Shown: in pieces, positions 1-29,959 of the stretch
Numbering within the stretch: the stretch's first letter is position 1
Layout of the letters: each line of letters opens with the position of its first letter
NCBI GenBank assembly: GCA_004431415.1
Contig: QPMI01000522.1
Span: forward strand, 1 to 64,000
Length of the DNA stretch: 64,000 nucleotides
Origin: Cyanophora paradoxa CCMP329
Lineage: Eukaryota > Plantae > Glaucophyta
Reading direction: 5' to 3'
Notes under the pieces: generated by a model
Seen by the model: only the letters and a program-made list of their open reading frames with translations
What the model was told of the DNA's origin: nothing
Databases searched by the model: none
Program-made: the position numbers and the translations under genes

Positions 1-188
1 ATGCAACAGAAGCCGCAATAAAAAAGCGTAGACAGGAACTGGTCTCGATCTGCAAAAAATGACAAGGGATTTAAGGGTAAGGTGTGTTTGATTGGTGAAC
101 CGGACAAATTATTTTCTCGTCCCATATCAAGGAACATATCAAATGGAAACTGAATCTGTGGTCGAATTCGAACTTGCAATGAGCGAAG

Positions 189-371
189 GTGGATCCCAAT
201 GAGAGGAAAAGGTTGTATGACCGCTTGTACTTCCAGAAACGCTATCAAGATGAGGAATTTCGTGAATTATATCGTTAAAAAGGCACTGAACGATATTATC
301 GCAGGAAAGCTGCTGAGATGGATCCCAATAATCCAGTAAAACGCCCAGTTGGTCGTCCCAGGAAATACTGA
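189..371 (+). pseudogene. Small basic protein with C-terminal AT-hook, interrupted
   Basis: Manual translation: VDPNERKRLYDRLYFQKRYQDEEFRELYR*KGTERYYRRKAAEMDPNNPVKRPVGRPRKY. In-frame TAA at 276-278; AT-hook core GRPRK. Confidence 0.55.
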
Positions 372-420
372 ACCGCCCCCAAAGTCCCAGATATCCGCTG
401 AATCCTTTTTGTTACCATGA

Positions 421-939
421 TCAATCGACTTTTCGATGGATCATTACCATATATCGAGCGCCAATCGGAAACCCAAAGGTATTAAAGGTTAGGCGCCAAA
501 AAATGACAAGGATCCGGAGAAATATAATTTCTCCATTAAGTATAAGAAGCCCCCGATTTTCGAAATGAACGCTGCCGCCAAGAAATCCCTGAAACGCCTT
601 GTTGACTGGCTTCGTAAGACGATGTCCTGTCTGAGAATCTGTCGTAATTCCTGTTGATCCTGATACCAAAACCCCTTTTCGCTCATAAAGACGGAGCCTG
701 GAATTGGATAAAATTCGATGAAGCCCTGAAATCCGGTAAGTATACTGCTTGGGGCATTCTCGCTCGTATATATCATGGTAATTGACTTCGACCAAGAGAG
801 GATTTCGCCAAATTCGAGGAGCAATTCCTGATGATTTCGGTGGTGTTAATCCACTTGCTAAAACAAAAAGGATATCATGCTTATTTCGCTCGACCTGCTG
901 AATTTCGACACCATTAAGATCTGGATAAAGCAGGTGCAT
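421..939 (-). CDS. Hypothetical viral protein, probably frameshifted
   Basis: Overlapping minus-strand ORFs 421-939 and 489-824; no motif recognised. Confidence 0.3.
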   Translation of the reverse strand: MHLLYPDLNGVEIQQVERNKHDILFVLASGLTPPKSSGIAPRIWRNPLLVEVNYHDIYERECPKQYTYRISGLHRILSNSRLRLYERKGVLVSGSTGITTDSQTGHRLTKPVNKAFQGFLGGSVHFENRGLLILNGEIIFLRILVIFWRLTFNTFGFPIGARYMVMIHRKVD

Positions 940-1001
940 TCAAAGGAAACCCCAAGATCGACTGCAAAACGATTGCATCCACTGGACTGCTGGGGTAATT
1001 A

Positions 1002-2923
1002 ATGTTTGTCCAGTCCCAAAACATGGATCAGAGAGCATGGGCATCTGAGTGTGAGTTAAATGAACCCACTGCTGAGTTGCAAAAGTGGATTGTTGAAAAC
1101 TACGAATTCCCAAAGGTGCACATTCTTATTATGCAAGGTGCGCTGAGGAGAATTTGCAGAAACATATTCTTTCTAAACTCGAAGAATTCGGTTTCATCTT
1201 GCCACAATCATCAATGAGACCAAGATGGGATACAATTTCACTGCTGAGAACAAAGGTCTGGTCTGTCCCTGCTGCAAGGGAAGCCATGACTCGAACAATT
1301 GGTATATTGTTCAAGGGAAGGAGAAGACAAATATATTGTTTCGAGTTACAGTGCAAACTGCAAGAAGCGACTTATCACAATTCGTGTGAAGGAAGAGACA
1401 GATGCGAATATCGAAAATCTGATTGATCGGTCTGCTGGATCTGATGGTGCCCATTATGATGTTGCACAGGTTGCCTATCTTGTTCTGCAAGACAAATACA
1501 AGTATTCCAACAAGACTGGTTCAGTTCATGATGTATGTGGGATTTGGAGATGGATGAACTGGGAAGCGAATCTTTCTCTGTTTGAGCTGCAAGGTCTGTC
1601 AGTTTATCTTCACGTTCTGTTCAACTTGCACAGAGAGCTCTTCGTGATGAAGAGAACCGCAATTCCTTGGAGGAAAGGTCAAGATTCTGCTGGGAATTGC
1701 TAAGAGCCTCAAACAGACTACATACAGAACTGCACTTATGTCTGATCTTTCAGTTCTGTTCAGTGACAAGACCTTTTTCGAGAGACTTGATACTGTTCCC
1801 AACATCATTGGGTTCACAAATGGTGTATTTGACTTGAACTCCATGACTTTTCGACAGGGACTCCATATGATATGGTGAGTAAGACTGTTGGCTACGATTA
1901 CACCACAGAAATTGACCAAGAGAAGGTTGCAAGATTAAATCCATCTATGCAGATATTATTGAATCGGATACAGACCGCGAATTCATGCTGGGATTAATCG
2001 CCTATGCCCTGAGTGGTTTGACAGAAATCAGAGATACACTTGCTGGACTGGAATTGGAGCAATGGGAAATCACTGTTCAAGAGGGTGAAAGACACTTTGG
2101 TGAGTATTATGGGTCACTGGACATGACATATTGGACTAACCCAAGAAGAGTTCGTCAGAGGCTCCCAGAACTCGCTTGCATTCTTGGTAAACGAATTGTT
2201 TTCAGTAATGAAGCAGAAGATGGTGATATGCTTCAACTGAACAAATCAAACAGGTTACTGGTGGGAATGAGATGAAGGTTCGAGCTCTTTTCAAGATCTT
2301 GTTACATTCATTCCCATGTTCCAGTTGTTCTTGTCCACAAATGACAACCTGGGAATCAGTAAACCAGATGCAGCAATCCAAAGGCGAATTATCTACTATC
2401 GATTCGAAATGTCTTCAAGGTCGATCCTCAGCCTGGTGAGAAGAAAGCAGACACCACTCTAATGCGCCTAATGAAGAATGATGACGATTATAAAATGGCG
2501 CATATGTCCATTCTCCTGGAAATGTGGAGAACCCATTCTCTCAATGAATTCGTCACCAAACCACCCCAGTCCATTGTTGATCAAGGTGTTGAATATTTCA
2601 ATGAGAATGACAAGATTGGAGAATGGATTCGTGAGAGTTATGAACTCACCAAGAGTCAAGGGGATTTCGCCACAAGTGAGTCCATTATCAGTCACTTTAA
2701 GATGGATCACATGGGCAAATCTGATGAGAAAATCACAGAATGCACTATCTTGAAGAGACTTCGCGAAGTCTTTAATGTGAAGGCTGAGAGAAAGCGAGTC
2801 AATGGTGTTTTTGCTCGTGGCTACTTTGGGATCAAAAAGAAGCATAGTCGCAAGTTGGTGGATGACAGTGATGTTGAAGGTGGGATGAGTAAACAAAACA
2901 GAATCGATTCTAATACTGATTGA
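1002..2923 (+). CDS. D5-like superfamily 3 helicase, multiply frameshifted as assembled
   Basis: Fragments across frames: CPCCKGSHDSNNWY Zn-like motif (~1260-1305), D5_N-type IGFTNGVFDLNSMTFRQG (~1805-1860), Walker A WTGIGA/NGKS (~2044-2075), LGKRIVFSNE (Walker B), VTGGNEMKVRALF, DAAIQRRI, and a C-terminal wHTH-like RGYFGIK. Confidence 0.88.
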
Positions 2924-2942
2924 ATTTCTTATTTTTTAAAAA

Positions 2943-3103
2943 CCTTACTGTAAATGGTTTGTGTGACAGCTGTGACACCTTTTTAATTGAGTGTGACGCC
3001 TGTGACGCCTGTGACGCCTACTTTCAAACTTTTTAAAATTTCAAAAATCTACAAACCTCTGAAAACAGGTGTCACAGGCGTCACAGGCGTCACACCCAAT
3101 TAA
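2943..3103. promoter_or_regulatory. Putative iteron-type replication origin, copy 1
   Basis: TGTGAC at 2962, 2971, 2992, 3001 and 3010, and inverted GTCACA at 3071, 3080 and 3089 (9-bp period), flanking an AT-rich core. Lies immediately after the helicase stop. Confidence 0.65.
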
Positions 3104-3246
3104 CCACAGACTCCCCCCTGTGGGTCGATCACTTTCGCGAATAATAATTGGACAATATAAAAACGTATCGAAAATCGGTGTGTTGTGACAAAAATTGACT
3201 GGCGATTTTAGGGATCGTTGCGTATTTCACTTGACTAAGACAGAAA

Positions 3247-6200
3247 ATGGATTATTTTGATGAAATTCGGCAGCAGCTTGTCGAAAAGAATGATATTGCA
3301 GAGGTGGCGGATTATATTGCAAAGATCAGAGCAGGTTATGGTAGAACCTATCAAAAGAAGCGTGTCTATGCAAGCAGACTCGACACAGTGAATGTATATG
3401 TCCCCAAAGGCACGAATGTGCGAATTATCAGAACCTGAAAAATGCGAAATGCGTTTAAAACGCCCAAAAATAATATGTTCCCTTAAAGTAAAAGATGCCC
3501 CGCAATCAAATAGAATCATCAAAGAAAAGAAAAACGAAATACTCGGTCTTTTAGGAACCTTTTAGTTACTGGTGATATTACAGAATTCGAATATGATCGC
3601 CAGGCAGCAATCCTGGATAGGAGACCAAGATTATCTCAACTCACAGAAATTACAAATCGCCTCTATGATCGTTTTGAGAAGATGGAGGAATTCAGGGATG
3701 AAGGTTAAGGTGGGAACAATTGAACCCGAGATTGAAGATGGGAAGCAATGAACAAAGCATACTCTTGGTTAACCTATCGAGCAAGAGGGGAGGTTATCCA
3801 AGATGGGATTGAATTCTTGGAGAGAATTGCACCCACTCTACCTCAGAGACTCAGACAGAAACTCCAAGACTGAGAGCAATTAAGACTCGGTTGACCTTCA
3901 TTTGTAAATTCACCAAAGTGAGTGATCCAAGGGTGTGGATCACCAAATTCATTTACAGTGATTACTTTGTCATCACAAGATCACGAAATATTGATGTTGA
4001 ACTGCGAAATGCCCTTCAATCTATGCAGGAACAGATGATGCAGGTTGACAGTTACAGACTGGATCGCATTGAGATGCTGAGAGTGGTAATTATGTCTTAT
4101 GCTCCTGTGGGTGGTTGCTTCTTCTCAACACCTGAGTGGATTGGATCAAGAGAGCAACTGTGAATGTCAAGAATATTGATGGTCAAGACTGCTTCAAGTA
4201 TGCAATCTTGGCTTACCTGCACCGAAATGATATTAATAAACACAAGAGCAATGAACCCAGCCAGTATAGAAGATGGTTAAACGAACTCAATTTCGAAGGC
4301 ATCCAGTTTCCAGTTGCCTGTGATGCAGAGGTGATTGATCGATTTGAGGAGCAGAACCCTGAACTCTCAATCAACATTTATGGTGCAGATAATCAAGCAC
4401 AGTGCTTCTATCCTCTTCACCAATCCAGCAACCCAGGAGAAGACCAAGATTAACCTTTTATTAATCGAAAACGAAGAGGATGATAGAGGGCATTATATCA
4501 CCATCATGTCTCTGAGTAGACTTCTGAAAACCACCTTTGATAAGCCCATGATGGTCGCATTTATTACTGTGAGACCTGTCTGTCTCGTTTCAGAACTCAG
4601 GAGAAGCTGGATGTACATATAGAAGCGAATCGCTGCATTGATTGGAGGGAGAGCAAAGGTAAATGCCCGAAATCTGGAAGTCACATTGCATTTGGGCTTC
4701 AACACCTTCGCAAAACTGTGTGGCTTCCCACTATCTGCTATGTGAAAATGGACAGTCACTCGGTTCCAATTGATGAGAACCGCAGTAAAAGAGAGGTCAA
4801 ATCGGTTTCTTTAACAGTTGTGATGGGGGATGAGGTGATCTCTCATTATTTCGAGGGATCAGATCCACTTGGTGCTCTGTTTACCACTCTCACAGAGATC
4901 AGACCCCAAGTAATTCGCACTCTATTCACCAACATACCCATGCACCCACTCACAGAAGAGCAGAAAGCACAATACAAGATCACTAAACACTGTTATATCT
5001 GTGCTGAACGATTTACCCATGAGAACTTCCCAGTGAGAGACCATTGTCATCAAACAGGCGCTTTTATTGGGAAAGCATGTCGAAACTGCAACCTCCACAG
5101 GAGAATCTCAAAGCAAACGAAAGTAGCAATTGTGGTGGATCACATGGATGAATGTGGACACGAAATATTCCGCAAATTGCACAGCAAGATGATAAACTTC
5201 GTGTTGAGATCCTGAGCAAGAATTTCGATCAATACCTGTCCCTGCAATGGGGCATGTGGAAATTCATAGATGCTTCGCATTTCATGGACTTCCAGGCAGT
5301 GGATTCTGGTGATCTTATGAGTAAATTCCAGACATTCCGAGAACTGGCGTTTACCCAATATGGATTGGATCCTGCCCATTATGTGAGCGCTCCTGGATTA
5401 TCCTGGGATGCAATGCTCATTTATACCAGAGCAAAGATCGAGCAGATCAGTGATGTAGGGCAATACGAATTCATTGAGAGAGCAATTCGAGGTGGGTTTG
5501 CTACAATGCCTACTCGATATGCAAAGGTGGAAAACCCAGATGACCATATAGTTCTCTTGGATGCAAATAATCTGTATGGTTTTGCTCTCAGTCAAGAACT
5601 GCCCATTGGCGATTTTCGGTGGAAGATGTCACAGAGGCACTTAAAGAGACCCCAGGGCGAAGTGCCTTTATTGAAGTAGACCTGGAATACCCACAAACTC
5701 TCACAGATCATTACGATTTTCCACTTGTAGTCAATAAAGAGCAAATCACCACCGAAATGCTGGGTGAGTATCAACGAAAACTACTGGATATCACAGGTGA
5801 GAAGTTAAGCAAAGACCCCAAACTCACAGCAACATTCTCACCCAAAGCAACTATGTGATCTCCCAACCTCTCTTGATCTATCTTGTGAGCAAAGGTATTA
5901 TAATTAAGAAGGTTCACAGGGTTCTCTCATTTGCAACCTCTGCATTCATGAAGAGTTATATTGATCTAAATACGAAACTGAGGCGCCAATCTATGTCCAG
6001 ATTCGAGAGTGACTTCTTTAAATTAATGAACAATGCAATCTATGGTAAATGCCTCGAATCATGCAGGGGTCGCTCTGTGGTAAAGATTGCTAACAGTGAG
6101 AAACTCTGCAAGAAATATGCTGCAAGTCCATTGATCAAGGCAACCAATGTATTAAACGAAAATGCTGTTGCCTTGAGATGTACTCAAAGCATGTTCACTT

Positions 6201-6761
6201 AGATAAACCTGTTGCAATTGGGGCTTTTGTGCTGGATTTCGCGAAACTCCATAACAGCAGGTTCTTTTATGATGTGGTGAGGAGAACTTGGGAAACAGCA
6301 GAGCTACTATTCCATGATACAGATTCTTTCTGTCTAATGCTTCATACCAATGATCTTAATAATGAGATGAAGCGAATTTCTGAGCACCTGGATTGCAGTA
6401 ATTATGATCCAGCCACCCTCTCTTTGATAGGAGCAATCGCTTGATTCCAGGTAAATATAAAAACGAGTTTCCCAATGCAAAGATTGTGGAGTATGTAGGT
6501 CTGAGATCGAAACTCTATGCTTTCAGAACTGAGACCTTTGATAAAATAAAGATGTCTGGGACTTCCTCCAAAGAGGTTCACTTTGATGATTTCAAGAGAT
6601 GCTTGTTTGAAGGCATCACCAAAACAGTAGCAGTAGTAAACAAGCGAAGACAAGACCACAACCTATATGATTTGGAGAGCAGAAGGGTGGCTCTAAACCA
6701 ACTCGATAGCAAAAGGAAGATATTAGACGATGGAATTCACAGCATTCCATTTGGGCTCTAA
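3247..6761 (+). CDS. polB: Protein-primed family B DNA polymerase (Polinton type, with endonuclease VII-like Zn domain), multiply frameshifted as assembled
   Basis: NVKNIDGQDCFKYAILA, LNFEGIQFPV, INLLLI...GHY, CYIC...VRDHCHQTGAFIGKACRNCNL, YGLDPAHYVSAPGLSWDAML, motif A DANNLYG, motif B KLMNNAIYGK, motif C HDTDS, GLRSKLYAF, DSKRKILDDGIHSIPFG. Confidence 0.93.
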
Positions 6762-6944
6762 TCTACTTCATTAATCTTTCTTTTTCTTTGGTTTCGCTCT
6801 CCAAGAAGTAATAAACCGCGAATTAAATGCAGCAGCCAAATACATCTTAATCCAGGGTCATTGGGCTCGATTGCAAAATAGTTTGGAATTGTGTTCTCTT
6901 TCCACACAGACTCTTGCATTTATTATATGAGAGATAAGGTAAAG

Positions 6945-8344
6945 ATGCCTTCTACACAAATAGGATTGAGACAACCACCAAGAATTGTGAGAAAAGAGGC
7001 AATTGAAGATCGAGGGAATATCCTACCTATCACAGTTCCAGTGGAGGAGAAGAGCAGTCGAATATTAAAAAGATCAGAGATGGTCAAGCAATTAATCCCA
7101 GAGACCCTCCCAGCTGAGACAGCACCAAAAGAGTCGAAGATTGCTAAGAAGTTCTATGATCCCAGGACAGGCTACAAGGGATTTACTGCAATGAGACAGG
7201 AACTACCAGAAGAGAACTACAAGAAGATGAGAGAATGGTATGATAAACAGGAGGTTGTCCAAATTAATGCACCCACTCTATCTCGAAAGAGAGATCCCAT
7301 GATTCCAATTAGGCAACCCCTTGATACATATGTGATTGATCTGCTCTTCTTTCCTGCATACAAAAGCAGAATGATGGTTATGATACATTTATGAGTGCAA
7401 TGGAATCAACCCTAAGAACTGGGTTCATAATTCCAATGAGAGACAAGAGTGCTCTAACTACACTTGCAGCATTCAAGCAACTTGAACAGAGAGTCCCCAG
7501 ACCGATTGTTCGCATTCAGAGTGACAGTGGAAGCGAATTTACCAATGTGTTGTTCACAGATTATTTGGGAACGAAATTCATTGAGCATCAACTAAGTGAT
7601 GTTGCAGATCACAGAACCCAAGGTCGGATTGAAGCCTTTAACAGACAGATCAAGAGATTAATCACAAATTACTGCATTGCAAATAATACTGCACGATTTT
7701 TTGATGTGTTGGGTGATATTGAGTATAATTATAATAATACCATTCACTCTGCAACCAAGAGGAAACCAGCAGAGACCACAGAAGCCCACTACAAAGAGAT
7801 TGTGAATATGGAGGATCAGAGATTCAAGAAATCAATTGAGTATCTTGATGCTCTGAAACCTGGTATGTTTGTGAGAGTGAAAGTTGAAAAGAATCCATTT
7901 GCAAAGCAGGGTGTTAATTGGTCTCGAATTGTTTATAGTGTGGAGGGCAGAGAGGGCTTCAAGTTCAGAATCAGAAGTCCAAGTGGTGAGATAGTTGATG
8001 GTAGATTCGCTTTTCATGAACTGCTGCCCATTAAAGGTGTTGAGTATCATGAAACTCCCACAGTGGATGCCCTTGAACAGGCAAAAGAAGAAGCCAGGGT
8101 TGATTCAGCAATCAGAAAGGAGGGCATAGAAAAAGCAAGTGAAGTACCAAAAGAGCCCCTCACAGAAGCAAGAGCACAAAAGAAGGGTAGAGTAGAGAAA
8201 GAATTAAAGAAGTTGACCATAGCAGGAACCCAGAAATTATCAGAAGTCAACAGTCAGAGGTGGTATAATGACTTTTCAACCACCAAGGAAACATATACTG
8301 CACCCCAAACTCGATTTAATTTACGAAGTGGTCAAAGGAAATAG
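6945..8344 (+). CDS. rve (DDE) integrase 1, one frameshift near 7365
   Basis: YDPRTGYKG, YVIDLLF (D), IQSDSGSEF (D), QGRIEAFNRQIK (E), YNNTIHSATKRKP, SH3-like GMFVRV...F.K...NWS, tail RFNLRS. Confidence 0.93.
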
Positions 8345-8345
8345 A

Positions 8346-8624
8346 TCAGCAGCGCTTCCTAAATCTCTTAGACCTCTGACGAATTTTCCTCATTTGTCTA
8401 TCTTTTTCAATAATTTCCAAGAAGAAAGTTTCAAGGTTTGAGACCAGTTGGTAATTATAAACAAAGAACAGTCTCACATGCTCTGGCTGTGACATGAAGA
8501 AATTGAAGTAGAAAGCAGTCTTGAAATCATGGATCCAGTCTGACTGGGCAGCATGGATGATTGCAGGGTCTTGGTAGATGGGATCCATAGCAGAAGTTGA
8601 GGGAATCCAGAAAATCCTTGTCAA
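8346..8624 (-). CDS. Hypothetical small viral protein with basic C-terminus
   Basis: ORF converging on the integrase stop; probable ATG at 8588 (MDPIYQDP...). Confidence 0.45.
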   Translation of the reverse strand: MTRIFWIPSTSAMDPIYQDPAIIHAAQSDWIHDFKTAFYFNFFMSQPEHVRLFFVYNYQLVSNLETFFLEIIEKDRQMRKIRQRSKRFRKRC

Positions 8625-8809
8625 TTTTTTATTTTGTAAGTGATTGATCTCGACGAAACCTGATTGGCGCTATCGTGACGATTCCGAATCTGTTTTCAGA
8701 TTTAAAAACGGAGCACTTGGTAATAAAATACAGTAGCTACTGTAAAAATCGCCATAATGTGGGCGAAGATACAGAAGCCACTGTATCATACATCAGGACT
8801 TCTGAAATA

Positions 8810-10351
8810 TTATACACTTCGAATAAATGCACCTGTCACATCAACTCTCATAGTTGGGGTGTTGATGTATACAAGTGGATAAATTCGAATATACCTTGTC
8901 CTCAGAGGGTAGCCAATATAGAAAACGTCTTTAATAGAGGTGGGATACCCAGAACTGTATGAGACATCACCACTGTTGTGGGCATTATTGATAGTTTCAC
9001 ACATGAACACTCTATTGACACCTTCATACTTGATAAATGACCAAGAAATCCCATCTTGTGATGTTGCAACATTGAAGGTCTTAATAAAAGCGTTTGTTAC
9101 ACCAGAACCATATGCTATAATAGATGCAACCTCAAATATGTATGGGAAGGTTACTTGGAGATACTCAGTGGGGACACTCCATATCCCATCAGGAGCAGAT
9201 GCATTTGCTTCCCAACCTGTCAAGGAAGGTCTTGATTTAAATGCCTCCCTTCCAATTTTTGATGATGAAGCAGTGAATGCACCATCTGATAGAAGATACC
9301 AGTTAGCATCAATTGGAGGTATGCTATTCAGAGTGGATGATATATAGAACCTTGCAGGGTTCTTGATTTCGTAATTTGCAACCAGTAAATCACAGAGTCT
9401 ATCAATCATCACAGTGTTTGCTGCTATGTACATTTCGGTTGCATCTATCATATCTGGGATCTTAGAGGTATCATCCAGAGAGTTTACTATGGTCTTTGGA
9501 AGTGGGACAGAGAGTCTATAATATCTTGCATATCCTTGATCATCATTGTATGGGAGAAACTCTTGCATCTTTTCCAGAGCAGAGAGTTCACTTGCAGCCA
9601 TCAACATATTGATTAATGGACTTCCAGAGGTGGAAGCAATCCATGAGAGAATACCCCAGCTGTTCACATCTTCATAAGAGTAACCCACATTTGGAGCATC
9701 TGTTTCATTGACTTCACCACAGGATATACTTATCACTATAATATCATCATCATCATCATAGATCTTCTTAGCATGACTGTAACCACAGACACTGGGATTG
9801 TTGTTACCTGAGATTGCACCATCAATTAGAGACATCCCATCATAGTTCACAGGTGAGAAATATGCTGGAGCAGCAGAGGTGGATCTTGCAGCAATCTTGC
9901 TGGGGATGGATTTGTAGGAGTTATCATTGGTGATAAAAATGGGCTTCATACTCACAGTGTCAAAACTTGTGATCACTACATCTTTGAGAGAGTCTTGAAT
10001 GAGAGACTCACCAGTAACAGTGAGAATGGCTGTCTCCAATGGGGTCACATCATACTTGGTGTTGAAGAGTGCATTATCAATAATATTTCGGGGATTTGCA
10101 AAGATTAAAGGCAGTTGATTGAGATAAGTGGAATGCAAATCGGTTGCTGTGAGTTTAGGTTCGTTTGGAAATTCGGGATTTTTCACATTGAGACCAATCG
10201 CAATTATCCCACCAGTGGATGTTCCACTCACCAGATCAACAAGGTCAATTACTCTTTTTCCTGTTCGAGTTTCGATTTCTTTAAGCAATCTCGTAATAAT
10301 TATACCACGAGCTCCCCCACCTGAAAGACTGAGAATTACACGAAGGGGCAT
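8810..10351 (-). CDS. Patatin-like phospholipase fused to a C-terminal F5/8 type C (discoidin) domain
   Basis: Intact 513-aa ORF with SGGGARG, GTSTG nucleophile elbow, SAAPAYF and IDGA. C-terminal FTASSS...W...EYLQVTF...FNVATSQDGISW...PLRTRYIRIYP...MRVDV is the discoidin pattern. Confidence 0.92.
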   Translation of the reverse strand: MPLRVILSLSGGGARGIIITRLLKEIETRTGKRVIDLVDLVSGTSTGGIIAIGLNVKNPEFPNEPKLTATDLHSTYLNQLPLIFANPRNIIDNALFNTKYDVTPLETAILTVTGESLIQDSLKDVVITSFDTVSMKPIFITNDNSYKSIPSKIAARSTSAAPAYFSPVNYDGMSLIDGAISGNNNPSVCGYSHAKKIYDDDDDIIVISISCGEVNETDAPNVGYSYEDVNSWGILSWIASTSGSPLINMLMAASELSALEKMQEFLPYNDDQGYARYYRLSVPLPKTIVNSLDDTSKIPDMIDATEMYIAANTVMIDRLCDLLVANYEIKNPARFYISSTLNSIPPIDANWYLLSDGAFTASSSKIGREAFKSRPSLTGWEANASAPDGIWSVPTEYLQVTFPYIFEVASIIAYGSGVTNAFIKTFNVATSQDGISWSFIKYEGVNRVFMCETINNAHNSGDVSYSSGYPTSIKDVFYIGYPLRTRYIRIYPLVYINTPTMRVDVTGAFIRSV

Positions 10352-10400
10352 CTTTACTTAACTCAAATTTAATAAATCTCTATAAGTAGAGTAAACAGGG

Positions 10401-13400: not shown

Positions 13401-15855
13401 CGGATTTAAGCAGTTATGCAACCGATGCAGAATTAGCGGCGGCACTTGCGAATTATCTACCTCTCACAGGTGGAACTGTAACAGGAACTGTGAATGCTAC
13501 CACTTTACAAATTGGTGGAACCACAATACCAAAATGTTACGATTTTGACCAATTAGATGTGGTTTCGACAGATAGAAGCGCAAATAATTGGAATTTAGGG
13601 TGGACACCAAGAACAGGTCAAGCAGGATGTTACACAACACCACAAAATGATGAAGATTGCAGTGCTTGTTGGATGAGGTGGAATGTCCCCACAGGAATGA
13701 AAACGTTTTATATTCAAACCATGTGTTGGTCTAATTGTAGATATTTTGACATCTATGGTCAAACAGCCAATGGTAATCAACATTTCCTTCGGCGTTTAAA
13801 TGTTTATCAAGGTATTCAAGCATCAGTACATGATGGAACACAATCCAGTATACTTTTCATCTCTATAAATTGTGAGTTTTACACAAAAATATATGTTCAA
13901 GGTCGAAAAGGTAGAATCCATCTTACAGGTGTTTTTGGGTGGAGTAGACAGAGGGCAACAGATAATGAGATTGGGATGATCTCTTGGGATAATATATTTA
14001 GTAAACCATCATTGTACTCAGCCGCAGACCTTCCAGCAACAGCAAAATGGACAACTAACACATGGTTAAAATCAACAGACAATATAGAAAGATTTTGGTT
14101 TGGTAATAATGATTGTACATATATACGAGGGAGAACAAATGGAGATAATGCGTGTGTTGTATTCAGAAACTCAGCAGATGCTACAATTTTACAATCATAT
14201 GAAAACGGCAACCTTGCGATTACTAATACTGTGTCAGCTCCAACCATAAGTGGAACGATTATTAATGGGGGTTCAATTAATGCGACTACAAATTATAAAT
14301 TTGGCGACAAAACAATGCCCCGATGTGTAGAATATGACGCAATTGTTGCAGGAAATTCGCCACATGGTTATGCAGGAGGTTGGGGTTTTGAAGGTGGAAC
14401 AGCATGGGAACCCTACTATAATTACGGTGGGTATGCTTCCAATAATGAGAGTGGCGACACTGTTGTTAACGGCTCATGGATTGATTACACAATACCCACT
14501 GATTTATATACGGGAACAGCCCACTTAACATATCTCCCTTGGGTAAATTGTCGTTACTTTGAGATTTGGGGAATCAATAGACAAGGTAATGCGGTTTTCA
14601 TTGCAAGAGTGAATAGTTATCATCAATATGAAAGCGCACCAGATGGAAACCACAATGGTTTACAAAATGTCCCTATTATGTTGGGAAATCGCTTTACTCG
14701 CCTTCGTATTATTCCAAAGGTAGGAAGAGTTCACATTATGGGCATTGGATTTACTCGCACTTGGACAGGAAGTAGTTATGGTGGTCACACAGGTTATGTT
14801 TCTTGGGATAACATTTATAGTAAACCAAATCTACTAACTCCAAGTTTAGTGGGAAACATTATAGGTTTTGATACTTGGAGTGGAACAGGTAGTGGTGGTC
14901 TATCATTCAGTGGTTCTTGGGAACAGGTTGGACAGCTTCTGTTTCTAATCCTGTGGATGGATTTTATAGTATTGTTGAAGGTGATTCAACAAGTGGAGAT
15001 TGGGCGCAAATTGAAGTCCCCGCAAATATGCAAACATGTCACGTTCAATATTTGTGTTGGACGAATTGTAGATATTTTGATATTGGAGGTTATCGATCGG
15101 GTAGATGGTTCCACATTATGCGTGTAAATACTTACCAGGCTATCTCAAATTATGCATCCGCAGATTATCACGATGGATTGGCGTGGGCTTCTTTTGCTTG
15201 TGATTATTTCACACATGTTAGATTTGTTGCAAGGAAAGGGCGATGTTATATTGGAATGGTTGGATGGACGAAAGAAAAAGGGAGAACCTCACCAGCAAAT
15301 GGTATGATCAGTTGGGATAATGTTTATAGTAAAGATGCTCGCACAACTTGGGCAACCGGAACTTGGATAACATCAGATGATAATTATGGGAGAGTTTATT
15401 TTGGTTCATCATCAACTACATACATTAAAGGTTATGGTTACGAAATGATCCATTTTAGAAATGGAAACGATATAACAATGCAAGCTTTTTATAATGATGG
15501 TAACGCTTACTTTTGGGGATGGCTTACACAAGGAAGCGATAGAAGATACAAAACCGACATTAAAAATATAACCGGCGCCCTTTCAGCGATCGAAAAATTA
15601 CAGGGTGTGAGTTATAAAAAGATTGGTGATGAAAACCAGAAAGTAAACTTAGGTTTGATTGCGCAAGATGTCCAAAAAGTCATACCAGAAGTAGTAGGTA
15701 AGAATCACGAAAATTATTTAACCCTTGCTTACACCGGTTTAATTCCTGTTCTCATAGAAGCCGTTAAAGAATTATCCCAGAAATGCAAAGATTTAACACA
15801 AACCTGTGAGAATCTCCAAAGTCAAATCGACCAAATAAAAAATGTCACAGTATAA
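10401..15855 (+). CDS. Large phage-type fiber protein with C-terminal intramolecular chaperone (peptidase S74); two -1 frameshifts (~12722, ~14920) split it into three ORFs
   Basis: HxHxWxEIxxKP fiber repeats, TSNIW pentapeptide repeats, duplicated and triplicated modules, and terminal GSDRRYKTDI...LQGVSY...GLIAQDVQKVIPEVV...LAYTGLIPVLIEAVKEL plus coiled coil. Confidence 0.88.
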
Positions 15856-15858
15856 TAA

Positions 15859-16167
15859 ATGGCGACGTATCCACTCGGTGGAACTCCTTCCACTACTTCT
15901 GAGCCTGTCGCTCTTGCTTTTGATACTATCAAACTTGTAGCCGCGCTACAAACTGTCGAAAAAACAATTCAGCAAACTAACAAACTGTCACCGGTTGTTC
16001 ATGAATATAAAAACCTCTTGGTCAATGTACTTGCGCAATCGGCTTATGGTGACCCTGTTGCTAAATACACTGAATGTGATTCTAACCTCAAAGCGATGAC
16101 ATCCAACATCCAATGTCTAACAACCGCTTACCAATCTCTTGGATCCAATCTAATTGCTTTGGCTTGA
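15859..16167 (+). CDS. Hypothetical helical viral protein
   Basis: 102-aa ORF starting 3 nt after the fiber stop, in a TAAATG context. Confidence 0.7.
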   Translation: MATYPLGGTPSTTSEPVALAFDTIKLVAALQTVEKTIQQTNKLSPVVHEYKNLLVNVLAQSAYGDPVAKYTECDSNLKAMTSNIQCLTTAYQSLGSNLIALA

Positions 16168-16206
16168 ATGGTGTTTATTTTTCTTTCCTTCTTAGTAAAA
16201 GAAGCA

Positions 16207-17052
16207 ATGGGTGAATATAATCGAGTCCAACTTCCAATATATTCCCTTGGATCCCCAGCAATGCACTTTCGCCAGCATGAAGTGAATGATGAGGTTCGTG
16301 GTTTAGAATCAACAGAGAGACCCAATTCCAATGGTAACTCCTTTGATAAGAATTCGATTATTCGAGTTAAAGAACTGAGAGCAGACAAGAATTCTGGTGT
16401 GGTTAAAACAACTCGACTCCTTGTCTCAAATGCGAATTTCTTTCAACCTACTAATGGAGGTCCTGATGCTTACAGTGTTGATCTGAAAGCCCTTGATTTC
16501 GATAAGAATTCTGCTGCTGTCACTGTGAGATCAGGAGGAGCATTTATTGGTGGTGGTTGCAGAGTTTCAGGTCAACTCTCCTCATCAATTGCATACAATG
16601 ATGTCCCAGATACTCTTGAACAGAATGTTGAAGACCCACAACGAATTCGATTATATATACCAGTTGCACAACAGCCAATTATTCAATTTTACCAAGGTTA
16701 TACTGTCACACTTGAAAACTCTGAATTGATTGAAGGAACCAAAAGAGTAATGAGAGGGCTGGTCATTCCTTCTGCAATGCTTTCTTTATGTAGAGCCAAC
16801 AATAACCAGCCAGGTCACAGATACAATTTCAGTGTTCAAGGATATGATCATTTCGGCACAGGGTTCTGTGTTTATAATAACAATTTCACCTATGATCTGT
16901 TTGTTACAGATATTGGAAAATATACAATTACAGTTATGGGTATCAGAACAGATATAGCTGCTGTCTCAGCTCTAAGAGGTGTTACTCCTGATACTCTTTC
17001 TCAAACAGGGTTTTATTCGGAACCAGATGTGATTGATGACCCCACCCCATAA
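16207..17052 (+). CDS. Fiber-like structural protein, paralog 1
   Basis: Shares ELRxDKNxGxVKTTxLLVxNANF and GGAxIGxGxRVxG with the next ORF. ATG 16207 is preferred over 16168. Confidence 0.75.
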   Translation: MGEYNRVQLPIYSLGSPAMHFRQHEVNDEVRGLESTERPNSNGNSFDKNSIIRVKELRADKNSGVVKTTRLLVSNANFFQPTNGGPDAYSVDLKALDFDKNSAAVTVRSGGAFIGGGCRVSGQLSSSIAYNDVPDTLEQNVEDPQRIRLYIPVAQQPIIQFYQGYTVTLENSELIEGTKRVMRGLVIPSAMLSLCRANNNQPGHRYNFSVQGYDHFGTGFCVYNNNFTYDLFVTDIGKYTITVMGIRTDIAAVSALRGVTPDTLSQTGFYSEPDVIDDPTP

Positions 17053-17075
17053 AAGATATATCTGTTTAATGTAAA

Positions 17076-17909
17076 ATGGCTGAGCAACCCCCACTTGAAC
17101 GAATTATTACACCCCAACTATCATTAGCAGCACCTGCGAATCACGTTTTGCAGCATGCTACCTTTGATGATGTAGAAGGTCTCCAATCGACAGAAGTACA
17201 ACCTACAATGAATACCTTTGGTTGCACCCATAAACTGAGATTGCAGGAACTCAGATGTGATAAAAATAATGGTATAGTTAAGACAACGAAACTCCTTGTC
17301 ACAAATGCGAACTTTTCTGCCCATTATGGAGACCCAGACAGTTATGGTGATCCTCTTTCTACTTATTCTTTTGAATCTCGGTCGGGAGCTATTAACTGCA
17401 AAACGGGGGGAGCATATATTGGTGATGGTCTTCGGGTTGGTGGAGCTGTTGGTGCGCCTCTTTTCGTAAATGATCAACCCAATCCCATTGATCCCAACAC
17501 CAGAATTCGCACCTATGTCCCCAGTATGAATGCACCATACATTATAAAGATCTTCCCAATTGTTGTGCATGAGCAGACATCAGTAGTTGATTCTCTTGTT
17601 GAAATTGGTGACCACTACAAGGTGGTTGTTGATATTCCACCAGATGTTTATGCTGTCTGTCAAGTGGAAGGTGGAACCCCAAATATTGCAGTTGTGATCA
17701 CCCCATATGACAATTTCGGAATTGCTTATCATGGAGTGAATTTCGGTCTTGAAGATTACCAGTTCTTGGTGAGAGCCACCAGGTTTGGTATCTACAAATG
17801 CATTCTCTATGCTGAGAGAACCGATGCTATTGCAAAACAGAATACATATGCAGAATATTACGGCACAAATCGCTACTTCCCCATTTTCGGACAGGATACT
17901 GCTCCATAG
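17076..17909 (+). CDS. Fiber-like structural protein, paralog 2
   Basis: Collinear similarity to 16207-17052 over the full length, including YDxFG and RTDxxA near the C-terminus. Confidence 0.75.
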   Translation: MAEQPPLERIITPQLSLAAPANHVLQHATFDDVEGLQSTEVQPTMNTFGCTHKLRLQELRCDKNNGIVKTTKLLVTNANFSAHYGDPDSYGDPLSTYSFESRSGAINCKTGGAYIGDGLRVGGAVGAPLFVNDQPNPIDPNTRIRTYVPSMNAPYIIKIFPIVVHEQTSVVDSLVEIGDHYKVVVDIPPDVYAVCQVEGGTPNIAVVITPYDNFGIAYHGVNFGLEDYQFLVRATRFGIYKCILYAERTDAIAKQNTYAEYYGTNRYFPIFGQDTAP

Positions 17910-17936
17910 AAATCTCAGGTATATATAGAGAGAGGG

Positions 17937-18209
17937 ATGGATGATAAAACAAAGAAATTCATAGAATCTGCAATGATGGTTCATGGTGATGCTAAATTCG
18001 ATTATAGTGAGACAGTCTATAAGAAAGCACAAGAGAAGGTCTCTGTTAGATGCCTTAAATGCAACAAGATCCTGCAAACCTACCCATTTAATCATGTAAG
18101 GGGCAGTGGATGCAGAGAATGCAACAAGAAATCCTCTCATGCATATAGAAAAAAGACGACATCAGGAATTGTGATAGATGATAAACCAGTGGTACTGTAC
18201 TTTGATTAG
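17937..18209 (+). CDS. Small Zn-finger protein (DUF723-like repeat unit of viral homing endonucleases)
   Basis: FIESAMMVHGDAKFDYSETVY...KVSVRCLKC...PFNHVRGSGCREC; no nuclease domain attached. Confidence 0.7.
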   Translation: MDDKTKKFIESAMMVHGDAKFDYSETVYKKAQEKVSVRCLKCNKILQTYPFNHVRGSGCRECNKKSSHAYRKKTTSGIVIDDKPVVLYFD

Positions 18210-18395
18210 ATCTTTGAGAGAGAGATGAGGATCTTGCCCCATTTTCCCTTTGTGATTATGCATGTATCAAAACAGTTTGGACAGGTCTTATGGTAATGCA
18301 GCAGGTTGATATCCACCAACTCATAAGGTAGCACTCTTGCTAAGATGGTTCGCATTCTACCAATCGCGTTTTTAATTTTTCTAAATTATTCATAA

Positions 18396-18797
18396 ATGAA
18401 TACTCATCGAGGTTTCCATGTGATGCTGGATTACAAATTCAGAACCCAATTAGCAGTAGGAGTGGAAAACTTGGAGACAACAACCCGGTGGTTAATGCAG
18501 TTCTTACAAACTATTGTTCAAGAGCAAGGTATTCGAGTAGTTCACAAGCATTGCGAGATTTTCGATGGTGGTATTTCTCCTCCTGGTTTTGCAATGGTTC
18601 TTCTGCTGGATGAGAGTCATTGCACTGCTCATTGTTACTCAAATGAAGGTATGTTGGCGATTGATATATTCAGTTGTGGATTAGAAGCAGAAAGAAAAAC
18701 CACGAGAGTATCTCATGAGATAGATGAGAGAATAACAGGTGTGTTTTCAGGGTTGGAGAAATCGGAGAAACATAGAGTATTGCGATTTCCGAGTTAG
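18396..18797 (+). CDS. speD: Pyruvoyl-dependent S-adenosylmethionine decarboxylase proenzyme family (short prokaryotic type)
   Basis: GFHVMLD...PPGFAMVLLLDESHCTAHCYSNEGMLAIDIFSCG contains the E/SH autocleavage site and DxFxCG motif; 133 aa. Confidence 0.88.
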   Translation: MNTHRGFHVMLDYKFRTQLAVGVENLETTTRWLMQFLQTIVQEQGIRVVHKHCEIFDGGISPPGFAMVLLLDESHCTAHCYSNEGMLAIDIFSCGLEAERKTTRVSHEIDERITGVFSGLEKSEKHRVLRFPS

Positions 18798-18828
18798 TTG
18801 ACACTGAGAAATTCAGAATTTCAGATGG

Positions 18829-19011
18829 TCTTACTGAAAATGGTCAGATAATCGGGTGTGACACCTATTTAATTGACTGTGACGCCTCTTTAATTGACTG
18901 TGACGCCTGTGACGCCTGTGACGCCTATTTTCAAACTTTCTAAAATTTTCAAAAATCTACATACTTCTGAAAACAGCCGTCACAGCCGTCACAGGCGTCA
19001 CACCTAATTAA
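18829..19011. promoter_or_regulatory. Iteron/inverted-repeat element, copy 2
   Basis: CTTACTG box, TGTGACRCC repeats, AT core and inverted GTCACA x3; same orientation as 2943-3103. Confidence 0.7.
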
Positions 19012-19139
19012 AAATGGAATCTATCTCTCTTACTGAGATATTCAAAATATATTCTTGTCTTACTGAAATCCGACTTGTGACACCTCTGACACCTCCAAAA
19101 CACTATCCATTAATCAACCTTTTTGAAAATGCGAAGTTG

Positions 19140-19293
19140 TCTTACTGGAAATGGTCTGCAATTTCGCTGTGACACCTATTTTAATTGAGTGTGACGCCTG
19201 TGACGGCTGTGACGCCTACTTTCAAACTTTTTAAATTTTTCAAAAATGACAGACTTCTGAAAACAGGTGTCACAGCCGTCACAGGCGTCACAG
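19140..19293. promoter_or_regulatory. Iteron/inverted-repeat element, copy 3
   Basis: Near-identical architecture to copies 1 and 2. Confidence 0.7.
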
Positions 19294-19405
19294 ACATTCT
19301 GCCCCCCTTACTACTCTTCTCAAAAACAGAAATATATCTTACTGAATATCATTTGAATACTATCTGTCACACTTGAATTCATTTATTTTGTTTTATAGAA
19401 CATCT

Positions 19406-19665
19406 GCAATCTAATCGATTGATCAATTGGACATAATGCAACTCAGTGACAGTTTTTCGATGCAAAAATGTTCATCAGCAATCTCATCGATTGTTTAATT
19501 GGACATGATGCAGTTCCGATATATTCCAATAGAAAATCGCGCAATCTTCTCAATTGTTTAATTGGACATAATGCAACTCTGTGACACTTTTTCGGTGCAA
19601 AAATGTAAATCCGCAATCCCATCGATTGTTTAATTGGACATAATGCAACTCTGTGACAGTTTTTG
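19406..19665. repeat. Subterminal degenerate tandem repeat, 4 units (periods 72, 63, 72 bp)
   Basis: Core ATCGATTGTTTAATTGGACATAATGCA at about 19414, 19486, 19549 and 19621. Confidence 0.85.
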
Positions 19666-19981
19666 CGTTTTCCGATACAAAATGGGCGGTGGTCTACTTC
19701 AATACCGATGAGATATATCGAGTTTATGCGAATTTATGCGAATTTATGCGAATTAATCGCGATTATATCGTTCTTTAAGTAGTTTAATGTTAATCAATCG
19801 AAGTTATATATATCGACAAAGAACATAATCTATCGATATAATATCGATTGCATCAATCGTGAATATGCATTAAATTAAACGCGTTTATCATTTTTAATAC
19901 AAAGTTTGCATTAATTTATACAAAGTTTGCATAAAAAGTTAAAGAAATTAATCGATAAATATGTATTTTAGTATTAAATTA

Positions 19982-20076
19982 ACACATATTGAAAAACGAA
20001 TTTAAATCCAGAGTGAATCGAGATCGCGAAGCGATCGAGATGAACGAGGGATTTAAATTCGTTTTTCAATATGTGT
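19982..20076 (+). other. 95-nt DNA hairpin: perfect 28-bp outer stem, three tandem G.A mismatches, GCGAAGC cap
   Basis: 19982-20009 is the exact reverse complement of 20049-20076; the inner pairing was checked base by base around centre 20029. Confidence 0.9.
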
Positions 20077-20677
20077 AACAAAAGGAAAGACCAAAGACGG
20101 TGAAAGCGTTGTTATCCATAATGGATTTTCGTATATTATCGAAAAGATCGATGAAACCACACTTACGATTTCTGACTATGCAGATGAGAGCATTATCATA
20201 GAGCTTCCTTATGATTCCATCAAATATTTCACGCTTCCCTACTCTACTGCGGGTCATGTTGCCCAAGGGGACACGATAAAAAATAAGCGGGTGGTTGTTT
20301 TCGAAGCGAATTCGACCCGTGTCAATAAGTATTGGTTGTGGGTCGCACTCACCCGCACGCCGTATTTGAAGGACACAGTGCTTTGCATTGATGAAAGTGA
20401 AAGCTATGATTTGAGCGCGTTCAAAAGCCGAATGCATCGATTAATTCCGGGATACAAGCAACAAGACCAGGAGGCAGAGCGACCTTATAACGAATTACTA
20501 TATGTTACTTACGAATGGATTAAGGATAGGTTTGGCATTCAAAATGGGCTATGTTGGAGATGTTACCTAATCATGGATTACGACGAAGTTTCGGTAGATC
20601 GTATTAATAATGCGGTCGCTCATGTGATCGGGAATATTTCCCTCTCTCATAATAACTGTAACTGTGCCGCGCAGTAA
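20057..20677 (+). pseudogene. C-terminal fragment of an SF1 (RecD/Pif1-like) helicase fused to an HNH-like domain
   Basis: The open frame extends upstream of 20291 to the stop at 20054, with no ATG start for the helicase part. It reads FTLPYSTAGHVAQGDTI (motif V), WLWVALTR (motif VI), then CWRC...SVDRINNAVAHVIGNISLSHNNCN (HNH). No Walker A/B. Confidence 0.75.
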
Positions 20678-21726
20678 TGGAAACCATCCTTTCATACAAG
20701 AAATACCGGCAGAAGTTGATAAATGATGGCGTGACCTTTGATGAATCAAAATTAAAACAACAGTTTGCAAACTCGGAACTACAACAAATTTTTAAGAAAC
20801 CAAAGAAACCTAAAACCTTTTTACGTATTGTAGCTAAGCCCCGTTCATTCCAAGTAGATATTATGTTTTTTAGAGGATTCCAAACAGCCAATAGAGGCAT
20901 AGGTAAGGCTCTTAGTTTTATTGAGATTCTGAGCCGAAAAGCATTCATTTACCCATTTAAAGAGTCTTCCGAAATTCCAGGCATTTTAGATAGGTTCAAG
21001 CGTGACGCAGGAAGAGTAATAGGATTAGCAGGCGATAATGAGTTTAGCAGTGCGGTTTATCGTGAATGGTGTAATGTAAATGGTGTAAGACTTTACACAG
21101 ATGTAGCAAAAGACGACCATGTAACAGTTGGTAATAAGTTGGGAATCATAGACAGATTCACACGAACATATAAGCAGCTTTTGAAAAAGGCGATGGTTGC
21201 AAAAGGGACAAGTAAATGGATAGAATTAATAGGAGAGGTTGTTTTAAACACTTATAATACATCTCCTCATTCTTCTTTGAAGAACGACACACCAAATAAC
21301 GTATATAGTAATGACCAAAAGCAATTATATATTTATTTACGTGACAAAGTGCATAATGACAGAGTAGAAGAGAAGGGTGATGTGAAACCGGGCGATACAG
21401 TTAGAGTGTTGGAACCAAAAGGAATATTTGATAAAGAAGGTGCAAGATTTAGTAAGAAGGTTTACACAATTGGTATGAAAGACTATAACAGATTCAAAGT
21501 ATTAGAAGATATAGACGGAGATGTAAAAGAAGTAAAGAGACGTTTTAAGAAGCAAGAATTACAGAAAGTGAAGAAAAATGAGATTATAAAAATTCCCGAT
21601 CAGAAACGAATAGAGAGGGTGAAGAAAACGAATAAAGTGAATGCGAAGTTAAAGAAAGAAGGAATAAAACCGAATCGAAAAGTGGTAGTGAGAAAGAAGT
21701 ATAATCTAAGAAGTAAAACGAAGTAA
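20677..21726 (+). CDS. rve integrase 2 (intact ORF)
   Basis: FQVDIMF, IEILSRKAFIYP, LAGDNEF, GIIDRFTRTYK, YNTSPHSSLKNDTP, GDTVRVL...FDKEGARFS, tail KYNLRS. Confidence 0.93.
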   Translation: METILSYKKYRQKLINDGVTFDESKLKQQFANSELQQIFKKPKKPKTFLRIVAKPRSFQVDIMFFRGFQTANRGIGKALSFIEILSRKAFIYPFKESSEIPGILDRFKRDAGRVIGLAGDNEFSSAVYREWCNVNGVRLYTDVAKDDHVTVGNKLGIIDRFTRTYKQLLKKAMVAKGTSKWIELIGEVVLNTYNTSPHSSLKNDTPNNVYSNDQKQLYIYLRDKVHNDRVEEKGDVKPGDTVRVLEPKGIFDKEGARFSKKVYTIGMKDYNRFKVLEDIDGDVKEVKRRFKKQELQKVKKNEIIKIPDQKRIERVKKTNKVNAKLKKEGIKPNRKVVVRKKYNLRSKTK

Positions 21727-22241
21727 AATGTAGCCATGGCGTGAATTATTTGTTTTTGTTACTGAATATCGTCGGAATGATAGGCGCGAATTGTTTTCAG
21801 TGGGCGATATGGATGAAATGTGTATGAAATGTGTCGGAATATCGTAAGGTGGTTTGATGAGTGAATTGTGTATTTCAGTGTGCGATATGGAGTGGTTGCT
21901 TACATGGTGGTTTGATGAGTGAATTGTGTATTTCAGTGGGAATTTCTCGATTAGAAATATGTATTTCAGTGGTTGCTTACAGAATATCGTAAGGTGATTT
22001 GATGTTTTTGTAGTGAATTGTGTATTTCAGTGTGCGATATGGATGAGAAATATGTATTTCAGTGGTTGCTTACAGAATATCGTAAGGTGATTTGATGTTT
22101 TTGTAGTGAATTGTGTATTTCAGTGGGAATTTCTCGATTAGAAATATGTATTTCAGTGGTTGCTTACAGAATATCGTAAGGAATCCCGATGTTTTTGTAG
22201 TATTCCGGGTTTTTTCGCCAATGTAGCCATGGCGTAATACT
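21727..22241. repeat. Terminal repeat mosaic, probable right TIR of element B
   Basis: Shuffled blocks (GTGAATTGTGTATTTCAGTG, GAAATATGTATTTCAGTGGTTGCTTACA, GAATATCGTAAGG) bracketed by a 16-bp direct repeat AATGTAGCCATGGCGT (21727-21742, 22220-22235); ends in TACT. Confidence 0.75.
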
Positions 22242-22286
22242 CGACTCTAGATCATACGTCTAGGCGCCCGGGCGCCGTCGGACTAG

Positions 22287-24163: not shown

Positions 24164-24647
24164 CGCTTCGTCCGGTGCGTTGCGATGGCGATCGCTCGTC
24201 GCTGATCGCTGCAGCGGGGCGCGGCGAGCGCGCCGGTCTCCGGAGCTTCAAGGCTAGTTCAAGCTCGAGCTTGCGATTCGGTTACTTCAGCAGCCCTTCG
24301 GCAGATCTACTGGCGTACGTATACCGTGGTCCTGTCGAAACACACCCCGGCGGCCAGGCTGCTTTCTGTGCTGCTGCTTTCCAGCCCGAGACCAGTCCGG
24401 TAGGGCCGGGGTGCGTCAAAGCTCAAGCCTCGATCAAGCCGCCGCAGCTAGGCTTCAAAAAAAAGTAACTGAGTCCCCTTGCGCACGAAGTTGCCACGAA
24501 TCGTGGATCCTTCAAGTCTTCGACTTCGGCTTCGCCTGATCATGAACCCATGATTTACGCGTACGTGAAATTTCAAAGCTAACATTAACTCGCTGCCAAT
24601 TATAACCGAATACTGCGACGGCCCGGCCCGCCCGGGCCGCCCCCCCG

Positions 24648-29628: not shown

Positions 29629-29959
29629 CCCCGCCCCGCCCCGCCCACAGCCTATCGTGTACGCAGAGATGGCAGATTGTTAACGTCGACCATGTTGAAA
29701 GCATCGCTGATCAACTTCAACGCGTCACGGCGTACATGTGCATGCACACGAACACACGCTACCCAACCAATCTGTTGCGCGCGGGTTCTATCATGAGAGG
29801 TTCATGAGAGGTGTTCCCGTACAAGAAGCCGCCGCCGAGAACAAGTGCTTCGAGGGGAGAACTGCTGTTCGTGGACCCTGCGATGGGCAGGTGTCGAAGA
29901 AGAATGCGAGAGCGGTGTGCACGTATGGAAGAGTTGGGAGGTGGCGAACCGGTTGCCCT

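Follow-up and report, generated by a model that had tools for sequence, protein, structure and literature searches.

An AT-rich island occupies positions 1-22241 of a 64,000-nt stretch of DNA from the glaucophyte Cyanophora paradoxa CCMP329 (contig QPMI01000522.1; the whole stretch is called the window here). The island carries viral genes, borders host DNA at 22241, and splits near position 20077 into two parts that differ in sequencing depth and in CpG content. Its first 20 kb are probably the right-hand portion of a Polinton-like virus (PLV) present in multiple copies, element A, which inserted in the helicase gene of a rarer PLV, element B, whose right end is the junction with the host. 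An initial annotation of this DNA had taken the island for a single element, which the split in depth and CpG content contradicts, and had suggested an undescribed virus group on account of its cargo genes, which turn out to be known from this host. What remains of interest is the nesting, the hairpin end, three origin-like stem-loops and the loss of CpG at the level of a viral lineage.

Two elements in one island

The GC content is about 0.40 over 1-22000 and 0.59-0.80 past 23000, as befits the AT-rich island in a GC-rich algal chromosome described in the initial annotation. The change point of GC lies at 22256-22263, and the island may end at 22241 itself or as much as some 20 bases beyond it on the right. 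We compared the window from 12000 rightward with Logan contigs from three DNA-type runs (X1, X7 and X14). The junction at 22241, for which a check with spanning reads had been proposed, is bridged with 0 differences in 3 of 3 runs (X1, 22203-24500; X7, 22152-23600; X14, 22152-22911) by contigs that carry 38-89 bases of the viral side. Because of these exact bridges, the junction is not an assembly chimera. The viral genes and the bridged junction together bear out the claim that a Polinton-like element is integrated here. Positions 17000-25000 are present in whole or in part in 20 of the 24 listed runs, and at least half of them in 15 runs, with one species label throughout. That the host is a glaucophyte agrees with the host transporter at 48316-49125, which matches a EukProt entry at 100%, then Cyanoptyche (also a glaucophyte) at 74%, then an entry at 67%, with all others at most 57% among the best 120 of 739 matches; relatives of the short fiber-like proteins described below are also found in C. 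paradoxa.

The depth of contigs matching 12000-20050 is 967-2526 in X1, 620 in X7 and 466 in X14, and these contigs differ from the window at many sites. In all 3 runs, exact low-depth contigs begin at 20048, and from there rightward the depth is 66-87 in X1, 46-55 in X7 and 29-36 in X14. The host flank in the same runs has depths of 75, 21-26 and 19-28, respectively. No RNA run is among the listed holders of this stretch. Another run, guessed to be RNA, gave contigs of related copies on 16543-19451; it may be DNA and was not used.

The observed/expected ratio of CpG is 0.48 over 900-18800, 1.18 over 20077-22241 and 1.08 in the host. Across codon boundaries, seven open reading frames (ORFs) of A that remained open have 60 CpG where 164 were expected. 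The count is 24 for 27 expected in the two ORFs of B, and a host exon has 47 with 47 expected. Since the loss is seen at silent sites in open frames, it suggests a long-term loss of CpG in a lineage of A that was under selection. In C. paradoxa, CpG methylation was reported at 32%, with repeats and viral genes enriched (PMC12344493). Methylation by the host would likely silence the copies and may have worn CpG out of the A lineage. The difference between A and B, in a host that methylates CpG, could serve as a simple gauge of the time over which a viral lineage has cycled through the chromosome. Two stretches of A have kept their CpG, 1-900 (1.08) and 3100-3700 (1.13), both at the 5' ends of replication genes; they may represent promoter regions free of methylation, or sequence swapped in recently.

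The hairpin at the boundary of A and B

A 95-nt hairpin marks the boundary (Table 1). By eye, 29 of 29 residues from the ORF at 19983-20078 agree with the beginning of a capsid predicted for C. paradoxa (PMC10120064, Table S2). In that prediction the hairpin peptide stands where a paralog has its roughly 25 N-terminal residues, and the identity stops at the last base of the hairpin. Judged from the tabulated sequences, the predicted capsid gene is apparently interrupted. We infer that the hairpin is the end of A, set in a capsid gene at the published locus and in the helicase gene of B in the window. The hairpin arms gave 0 matches in viral contigs and 0 in metagenomes.

To the right of the hairpin, the SF1 helicase tail has no match in Pfam and none in the PDB; it matched at 0.97 in the Atlas to clusters partly with UvrD_C_2, and in PHROG to endonuclease VII (E 7e-7). 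The integrase of B is 27% identical to that of A (E 3e-20) and has no Pfam rve match of its own. Neither of these two genes figures in the initial annotation. Subterminal repeats follow up to the host junction; by convention, the ends of Polintons read AG...CT. Some high-depth contigs have joints that skip most (20681-21618) or part (21062-21529) of integrase B, the shorter sides measuring 25 and 43 bases; these possibly come from internally deleted relatives, or the joints are possibly due to chance.

Nested PLVs, terminal palindromes, and the pairing of pPolB with a D5 helicase in one element are described from Halocafeteria seosinensis (bioRxiv 10.64898/2026.07.28.741278). That host belongs to another supergroup, and its palindromes, 52 nt long in the figured subtype, are mostly in elements without pPolB, whereas the 95-nt hairpin of A belongs to an element with both replicases. 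C. paradoxa would thereby become the second lineage of hosts in which elements are nested and end in palindromes.

Gene content

The features of the island are collected in Table 1. The initial annotation had named an SF3 helicase, a protein-primed DNA polymerase B (pPolB), an rve integrase, a patatin-discoidin lipase, an S74 fiber and an S-adenosylmethionine decarboxylase (AdoMetDC), and a Pfam scan of 26 ORFs returned the last five, with pPolB and rve below the cut-off. The SF3 helicase is present on two weak fragment matches (D5_N, E 2.3e-4; PHROG DNA primase, E 2.9e-4) and on a Walker A motif broken across frames; an intact Walker A was seen in none of the six frames of the island, and the helicase fragment has no match in the phage collection.

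Table 1. Features of the island at 1-22241, with positions in the window
Feature	Positions	Strand	Remarks
Element A	1-20076		high-depth, CpG-poor, Polinton-like; left end beyond the window
Primase-SF3 (D5-like) helicase	417-2923	+	frameshifted pieces, start uncertain; primase domain without profile support
Stem-loop 1	2983-3103		three TGTGAC repeats per arm; 60 bases past helicase stop at 2923; z -13.4
pPolB with endonuclease VII insert	3247-6761	+	putative start codon; aligned 3736-6755
rve integrase A	6891-8344	+	one frameshift near 7369
92-residue ORF	8346-8624	-	no family
Patatin-like lipase fused to discoidin (F5/8C)	8810-10351	-	intact, 513 residues
Long fiber gene	10401-15855	+	~1800 residues; internal duplication; C-terminal S74 chaperone; broken twice here
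102-residue ORF	15859-16167	+	no family
Short fiber-like protein 1	16168-17052	+	34% identical to neighbour; N-terminal domain common to C1q-ended proteins
Short fiber-like protein 2	17076-17909	+	low-confidence model, small beta-sandwich head
Small zinc-finger ORF	17937-18209	+	akin to endonuclease-associated domains; DUF4379; PHROG endonuclease E 7e-11
Bacterial-type AdoMetDC-like decarboxylase	18396-18797	+	ESH self-cleavage motif; AdoMet_dc E 4.5e-11; substrate predicted
Stem-loop 2	18889-19012		further TGTGAC copies; z -11.3
Stem-loop 3	19181-19292		further TGTGAC copies; z -10.8
Hairpin	19982-20076		95 nt, 28 perfectly paired bases; putative right end of A; z -11.6
Element B	20077-22241		low-depth; helicase tail, second integrase, host junction
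SF1 helicase, 3' part	20077-20677	+	C-terminal endonuclease VII-like finger; 5' part missing
Second rve-type integrase (B)	20677-21726	+	intact, 349 residues
Subterminal 93-94-base repeats	21727-22241		between two 16-base direct repeats; end at host junction

In the polymerase, DNA_pol_B_2 was matched in 2 fragments (E 1e-4 to 2e-4) and Endonuclease_7 inside the polymerase. Its named closest relatives, 37-53% identical over the query fragment, come mostly from animal genomes and carry the same endonuclease VII insert. Integrase A matched rve at E 0.003; its search in viral contigs yielded 1 of 5 candidates, an unrelated phage locus. The lipase fusion matched Patatin at E 9e-22 and F5/8C at E 1e-6. 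An exact-sequence look-up of eight element proteins in the protein collection found none of them.

The S74 chaperone domain of the long fiber is matched by Peptidase_S74 at E 1.5e-17. The fiber-like paralogs reported in the initial annotation stand, but the ORFs at 10401-12731, 12719-15127 and 14917-15855 make up one long fiber in high-depth contigs of the family. The two paralogs of 280-290 residues have six relatives among 1.84 billion representatives. Of five distant relatives, three have C1q heads and two are C. paradoxa proteins. Further searches for loci related to the short fiber gave 0 of 30, 0 of 93 and 0 of 86, and metagenomes 0 of 394. Modelling was weak, with a predicted local distance difference test (pLDDT) value of 31 from the single sequence and 44 from nine sequences, and so was the fold search (best Z 5.4, root-mean-square deviation 3.7, 88 aligned). 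From these sequence relationships, the paralogs are best read as short fibers. Pentons were considered and provisionally set aside, since in three of the five distant relatives the N-terminal domain that the paralogs share is followed by a C1q head.

Some viral homologs of AdoMetDC decarboxylate arginine or ornithine instead (PMC9992855). At the far left of the island, the frameshifted end of a small gene at 200-372 has a GRPRK tail, which we take to be AT-hook-like.

Stem-loops with a TGTGAC repeat

Three palindromes of 110-125 nt each contain the word TGTGAC, and one of them lies just past the primase-helicase gene. The plasmid pRN1 has a 100-nt stem-loop past its primase-SF3 helicase gene that is required for replication, and phage BIP-1 has a similar one after the same type of gene (PMC4234260). 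Origins of Staphylococcus aureus pathogenicity islands (SaPIs) are also downstream of the helicase gene (PMC7581432). Stem-loop 1 shares the size and place of these stem-loops; A differs in being an integrated eukaryotic virus that also has pPolB, in having three copies, in carrying its repeats in the arms, and in that the function is predicted. By this analogy, the TGTGAC stem-loops may act as a replication origin, a prediction that we put near the even mark. The stem-loop is a concrete candidate origin, and it makes the start of replication testable in PLVs with both pPolB and a primase-helicase.

A search with a 17-base pattern found 32 viral loci, 14 of which have the repeat on both strands. 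Ten of these 14 are directly after a primase-helicase gene, one partly covers the end of a gene for an AAA_25 helicase, two lie in coding repeats, and one is unresolved. The primase-helicase was confirmed by Pfam VapE or DUF5906 in nine of the ten loci, and the tenth shares its protein end with one of the nine. The ten phage loci are not independent, because several are related phages. These contigs (L004, L007, L008, L009, L018, L019, L021, L028, L029 and L032), with inverted TGTGAC repeats just after a VapE/DUF5906 primase-helicase, hold candidate origins with a common repeat word.

One copy of the sequence AATTGGACA lies upstream of pPolB (3146), and A has four more in its subterminal repeats (19425-19640); it is a possible promoter or binding site.

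Frameshifts in element A

We aligned the pPolB region with six full-length homologs picked from 120 listed, using an approximate aligner that places breaks within about 20 bases. Against each of the six there are 8-9 frameshifts and 0 stop codons, and 7-9 of the frameshifts are one-base losses. Integrase A has one break of this type, and the two breaks of the long fiber are at 12720 and 14918, where the high-depth contigs carry one base more. The near-unique element B is identical to the contigs. Because the breaks are mostly one-base losses without stops, and because B matches the contigs exactly, most frameshifts are likely uncorrected long-read assembly errors in a repeat. Endogenous viral elements of protists have been reported to suffer from this artefact (PMC10120064, section 7).

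Capsid and packaging genes

The initial annotation had seen neither a capsid gene nor a packaging ATPase in the island, and motif scans and a check of the gaps agree. In 1-22241 there is no capsid gene, and just two free gaps exceed 420 bases: 18798-20076, which is filled with repeats, and 21727-22241 at the end. Of the gaps in the gene map, 18798-20076 alone could accommodate a capsid gene. The published C. paradoxa capsids supplied three specific motifs, which have no match in the window; a fourth, loose motif has six chance matches. Walker A patterns in six frames reveal no A32 ATPase gene in the window, in which no virophage-type capsid, penton or cysteine protease, and no Maverick-type capsid or adenain-type protease, was seen either. 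The particle genes of A are assumed because none is visible in the window, and the capsid gene is probably to the left of it.

The island has several hallmarks of PLVs: two rve-type integrases together with pPolB and a primase-helicase, an integrated state, a shift in GC, and a size that fits 15-30 kb, A being at least 20 kb long.

Published C. paradoxa capsid genes number 366 and form two clusters (272 and 94); the PLVs amount to about 7.3% of the genome, reckoned at 20 kb each, and by HHpred the capsids match those of ascoviruses, iridoviruses and other large viruses (PMC10120064). The placement of these divergent capsids may deserve more attention than the present locus; among 156 glaucophyte elements, the standard profile was tabulated in 2 (see below).

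Relation to published elements

For 156 glaucophyte elements, Table S6 of PMC12220804 lists pPolB 49 times, D5_N 40, SF1 helicase 34, rve 85, S74 37, lipase 89, AdoMet_dc 66, A32 139 and penton 97; the standard PLV/Polinton capsid profile appears twice, and virophage capsid and protease 0 times. Discoidin, alone or fused to patatin, is reported from PLVs of Rhizaria and of glaucophytes (11) in the same paper. As group counts, the repertoire of pPolB, SF3, SF1, rve, lipase, S74 and AdoMet_dc in the island is matched by the published set. In this host, such cargo is nothing new. The suggestion of an undescribed group, made from cargo and host, is not supported, given the tabulation of the same gene set and the published patatin-discoidin fusion, and A very likely belongs to the catalogued C. 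paradoxa PLVs. It shares with the glaucophyte PLVs the host lineage, the gene set including the discoidin-patatin fusion and, with one published capsid prediction, the peptide at the end of A; the short-fiber domain is shared with C. paradoxa proteins. Where it differs is in what is on record: as far as consulted, the papers give counts and capsid sequences, not the map of A, its nesting, hairpin, stem-loops or CpG loss. The window provides a gene map and one terminus for a virus family otherwise found as counts and capsid sequences.

Adintovirus-related variants of PolB and integrase have been noted in C. paradoxa (PMC8502044). Animal Mavericks/Polintons of the alpha-adintovirus type, treated in the same paper, resemble A in their rve integrase and in a pPolB with an endonuclease VII insert; A has in addition an SF3 helicase, lipase, fibers and decarboxylase, and no protease or Maverick-type capsid was seen in the window. 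No paper devoted to the family of A was found, subscription journals and preprint supplements being outside the search, and the main text of two 2026 PLV preprints does not mention glaucophytes.

Proposed life cycle and alternative explanations

If the preferred reading is correct, A would integrate by its own rve integrase and replicate with pPolB and the primase-SF3 helicase, which may load at the TGTGAC stem-loop. Divergent genes for capsid, penton and A32, situated to the left of the window, would supply its particle, and one long fiber and two short ones would adorn the surface. The patatin-discoidin protein could aid membrane entry, and the decarboxylase could feed polyamine synthesis.

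Several points weigh against this reading of the island. None of capsid, penton, ATPase, left end, inverted repeat and target duplication is visible, and the matches of the SF3 helicase are weak. The published counts are given per host group, not per element, and so give no co-occurrence with a capsid. The read check of depth and breaks starts at 12000, and with the two CpG-keeping stretches near its left side, A could be composite. Rare variants are lost from Logan contigs, so this copy could truly carry the breaks, and one pPolB break is a one-base gain in five of six alignments.

The missing particle genes might mean that A is a capsid-less satellite with its own replication, integration and entry genes, which prefers to insert in other PLVs and borrows their capsids. 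Its 20 kb without capsid or ATPase would fit, as would the position of its end in a helicase gene here and apparently in a capsid gene at the published locus. That second site, however, is biased because the source table lists capsid genes only; the typical size of 15-30 kb (PMC10120064) leaves room to the left; and the published set, in which lipase, AdoMetDC and S74 genes are found, also includes A32 and penton, in the numbers given above. We regard such a satellite as improbable, and hold the same doubt about a hairpin-ended satellite with phage-type stem-loop origins that would place its own fibers and entry lipase on the divergent capsids of others. If A were indeed capsid-less and virus-targeting, it would add a new layer of parasitism among PLVs. 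It is likewise unlikely that a deletion or a recombination event at the hairpin, itself then a 95-base mobile element, brought A and B together with no nested insertion. The hairpin does look like a miniature inverted-repeat transposable element in its 28-base perfect arms and is found in two different viral genes, but it has no target duplication beside it, the sequence on its left contains nothing of the helicase, and the mean depth is high up to the bin that contains it.

Mavirus-type virophages (endogenous mavirus-like elements, EMALEs) combine pPolB, rve, SF3 helicase and lipase and form AT-rich islands in hosts rich in GC, and the same toolkit in A was behind the virophage leaning of the initial annotation. 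Insertions of giant viruses, on which a virophage would depend, are reported in C. paradoxa (PMC12344493). We nevertheless give this origin very little credence. Virophage capsid and protease are found neither in the window nor in the 156 tabulated glaucophyte elements (PMC12220804), the capsids of C. paradoxa match those of large viruses (PMC10120064), and the named pPolB relatives, most of which belong to animal genomes, have the endonuclease VII insert. That the island is a chimeric assembly or a contamination is scarcely credible: the many frameshifts do show an error-prone assembly, and none of the listed contigs reaches across the entire stretch or the boundary of A and B, but the host junction is bridged exactly in three runs and all 24 listed runs bear one species label.

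Host flank

The host side of the window contains an alanine racemase exon at 55461-56195 on the minus strand (Pfam E 3e-20), in keeping with a peptidoglycan-walled plastid. A beta-helix repeat protein is encoded at 29794-30684, also on the minus strand, and includes three 138-base repeats. At 40042-41156, a 163-base unit is present in five near-perfect tandem copies and one diverged copy, adjoining 119-base repeats at 38481-40001.

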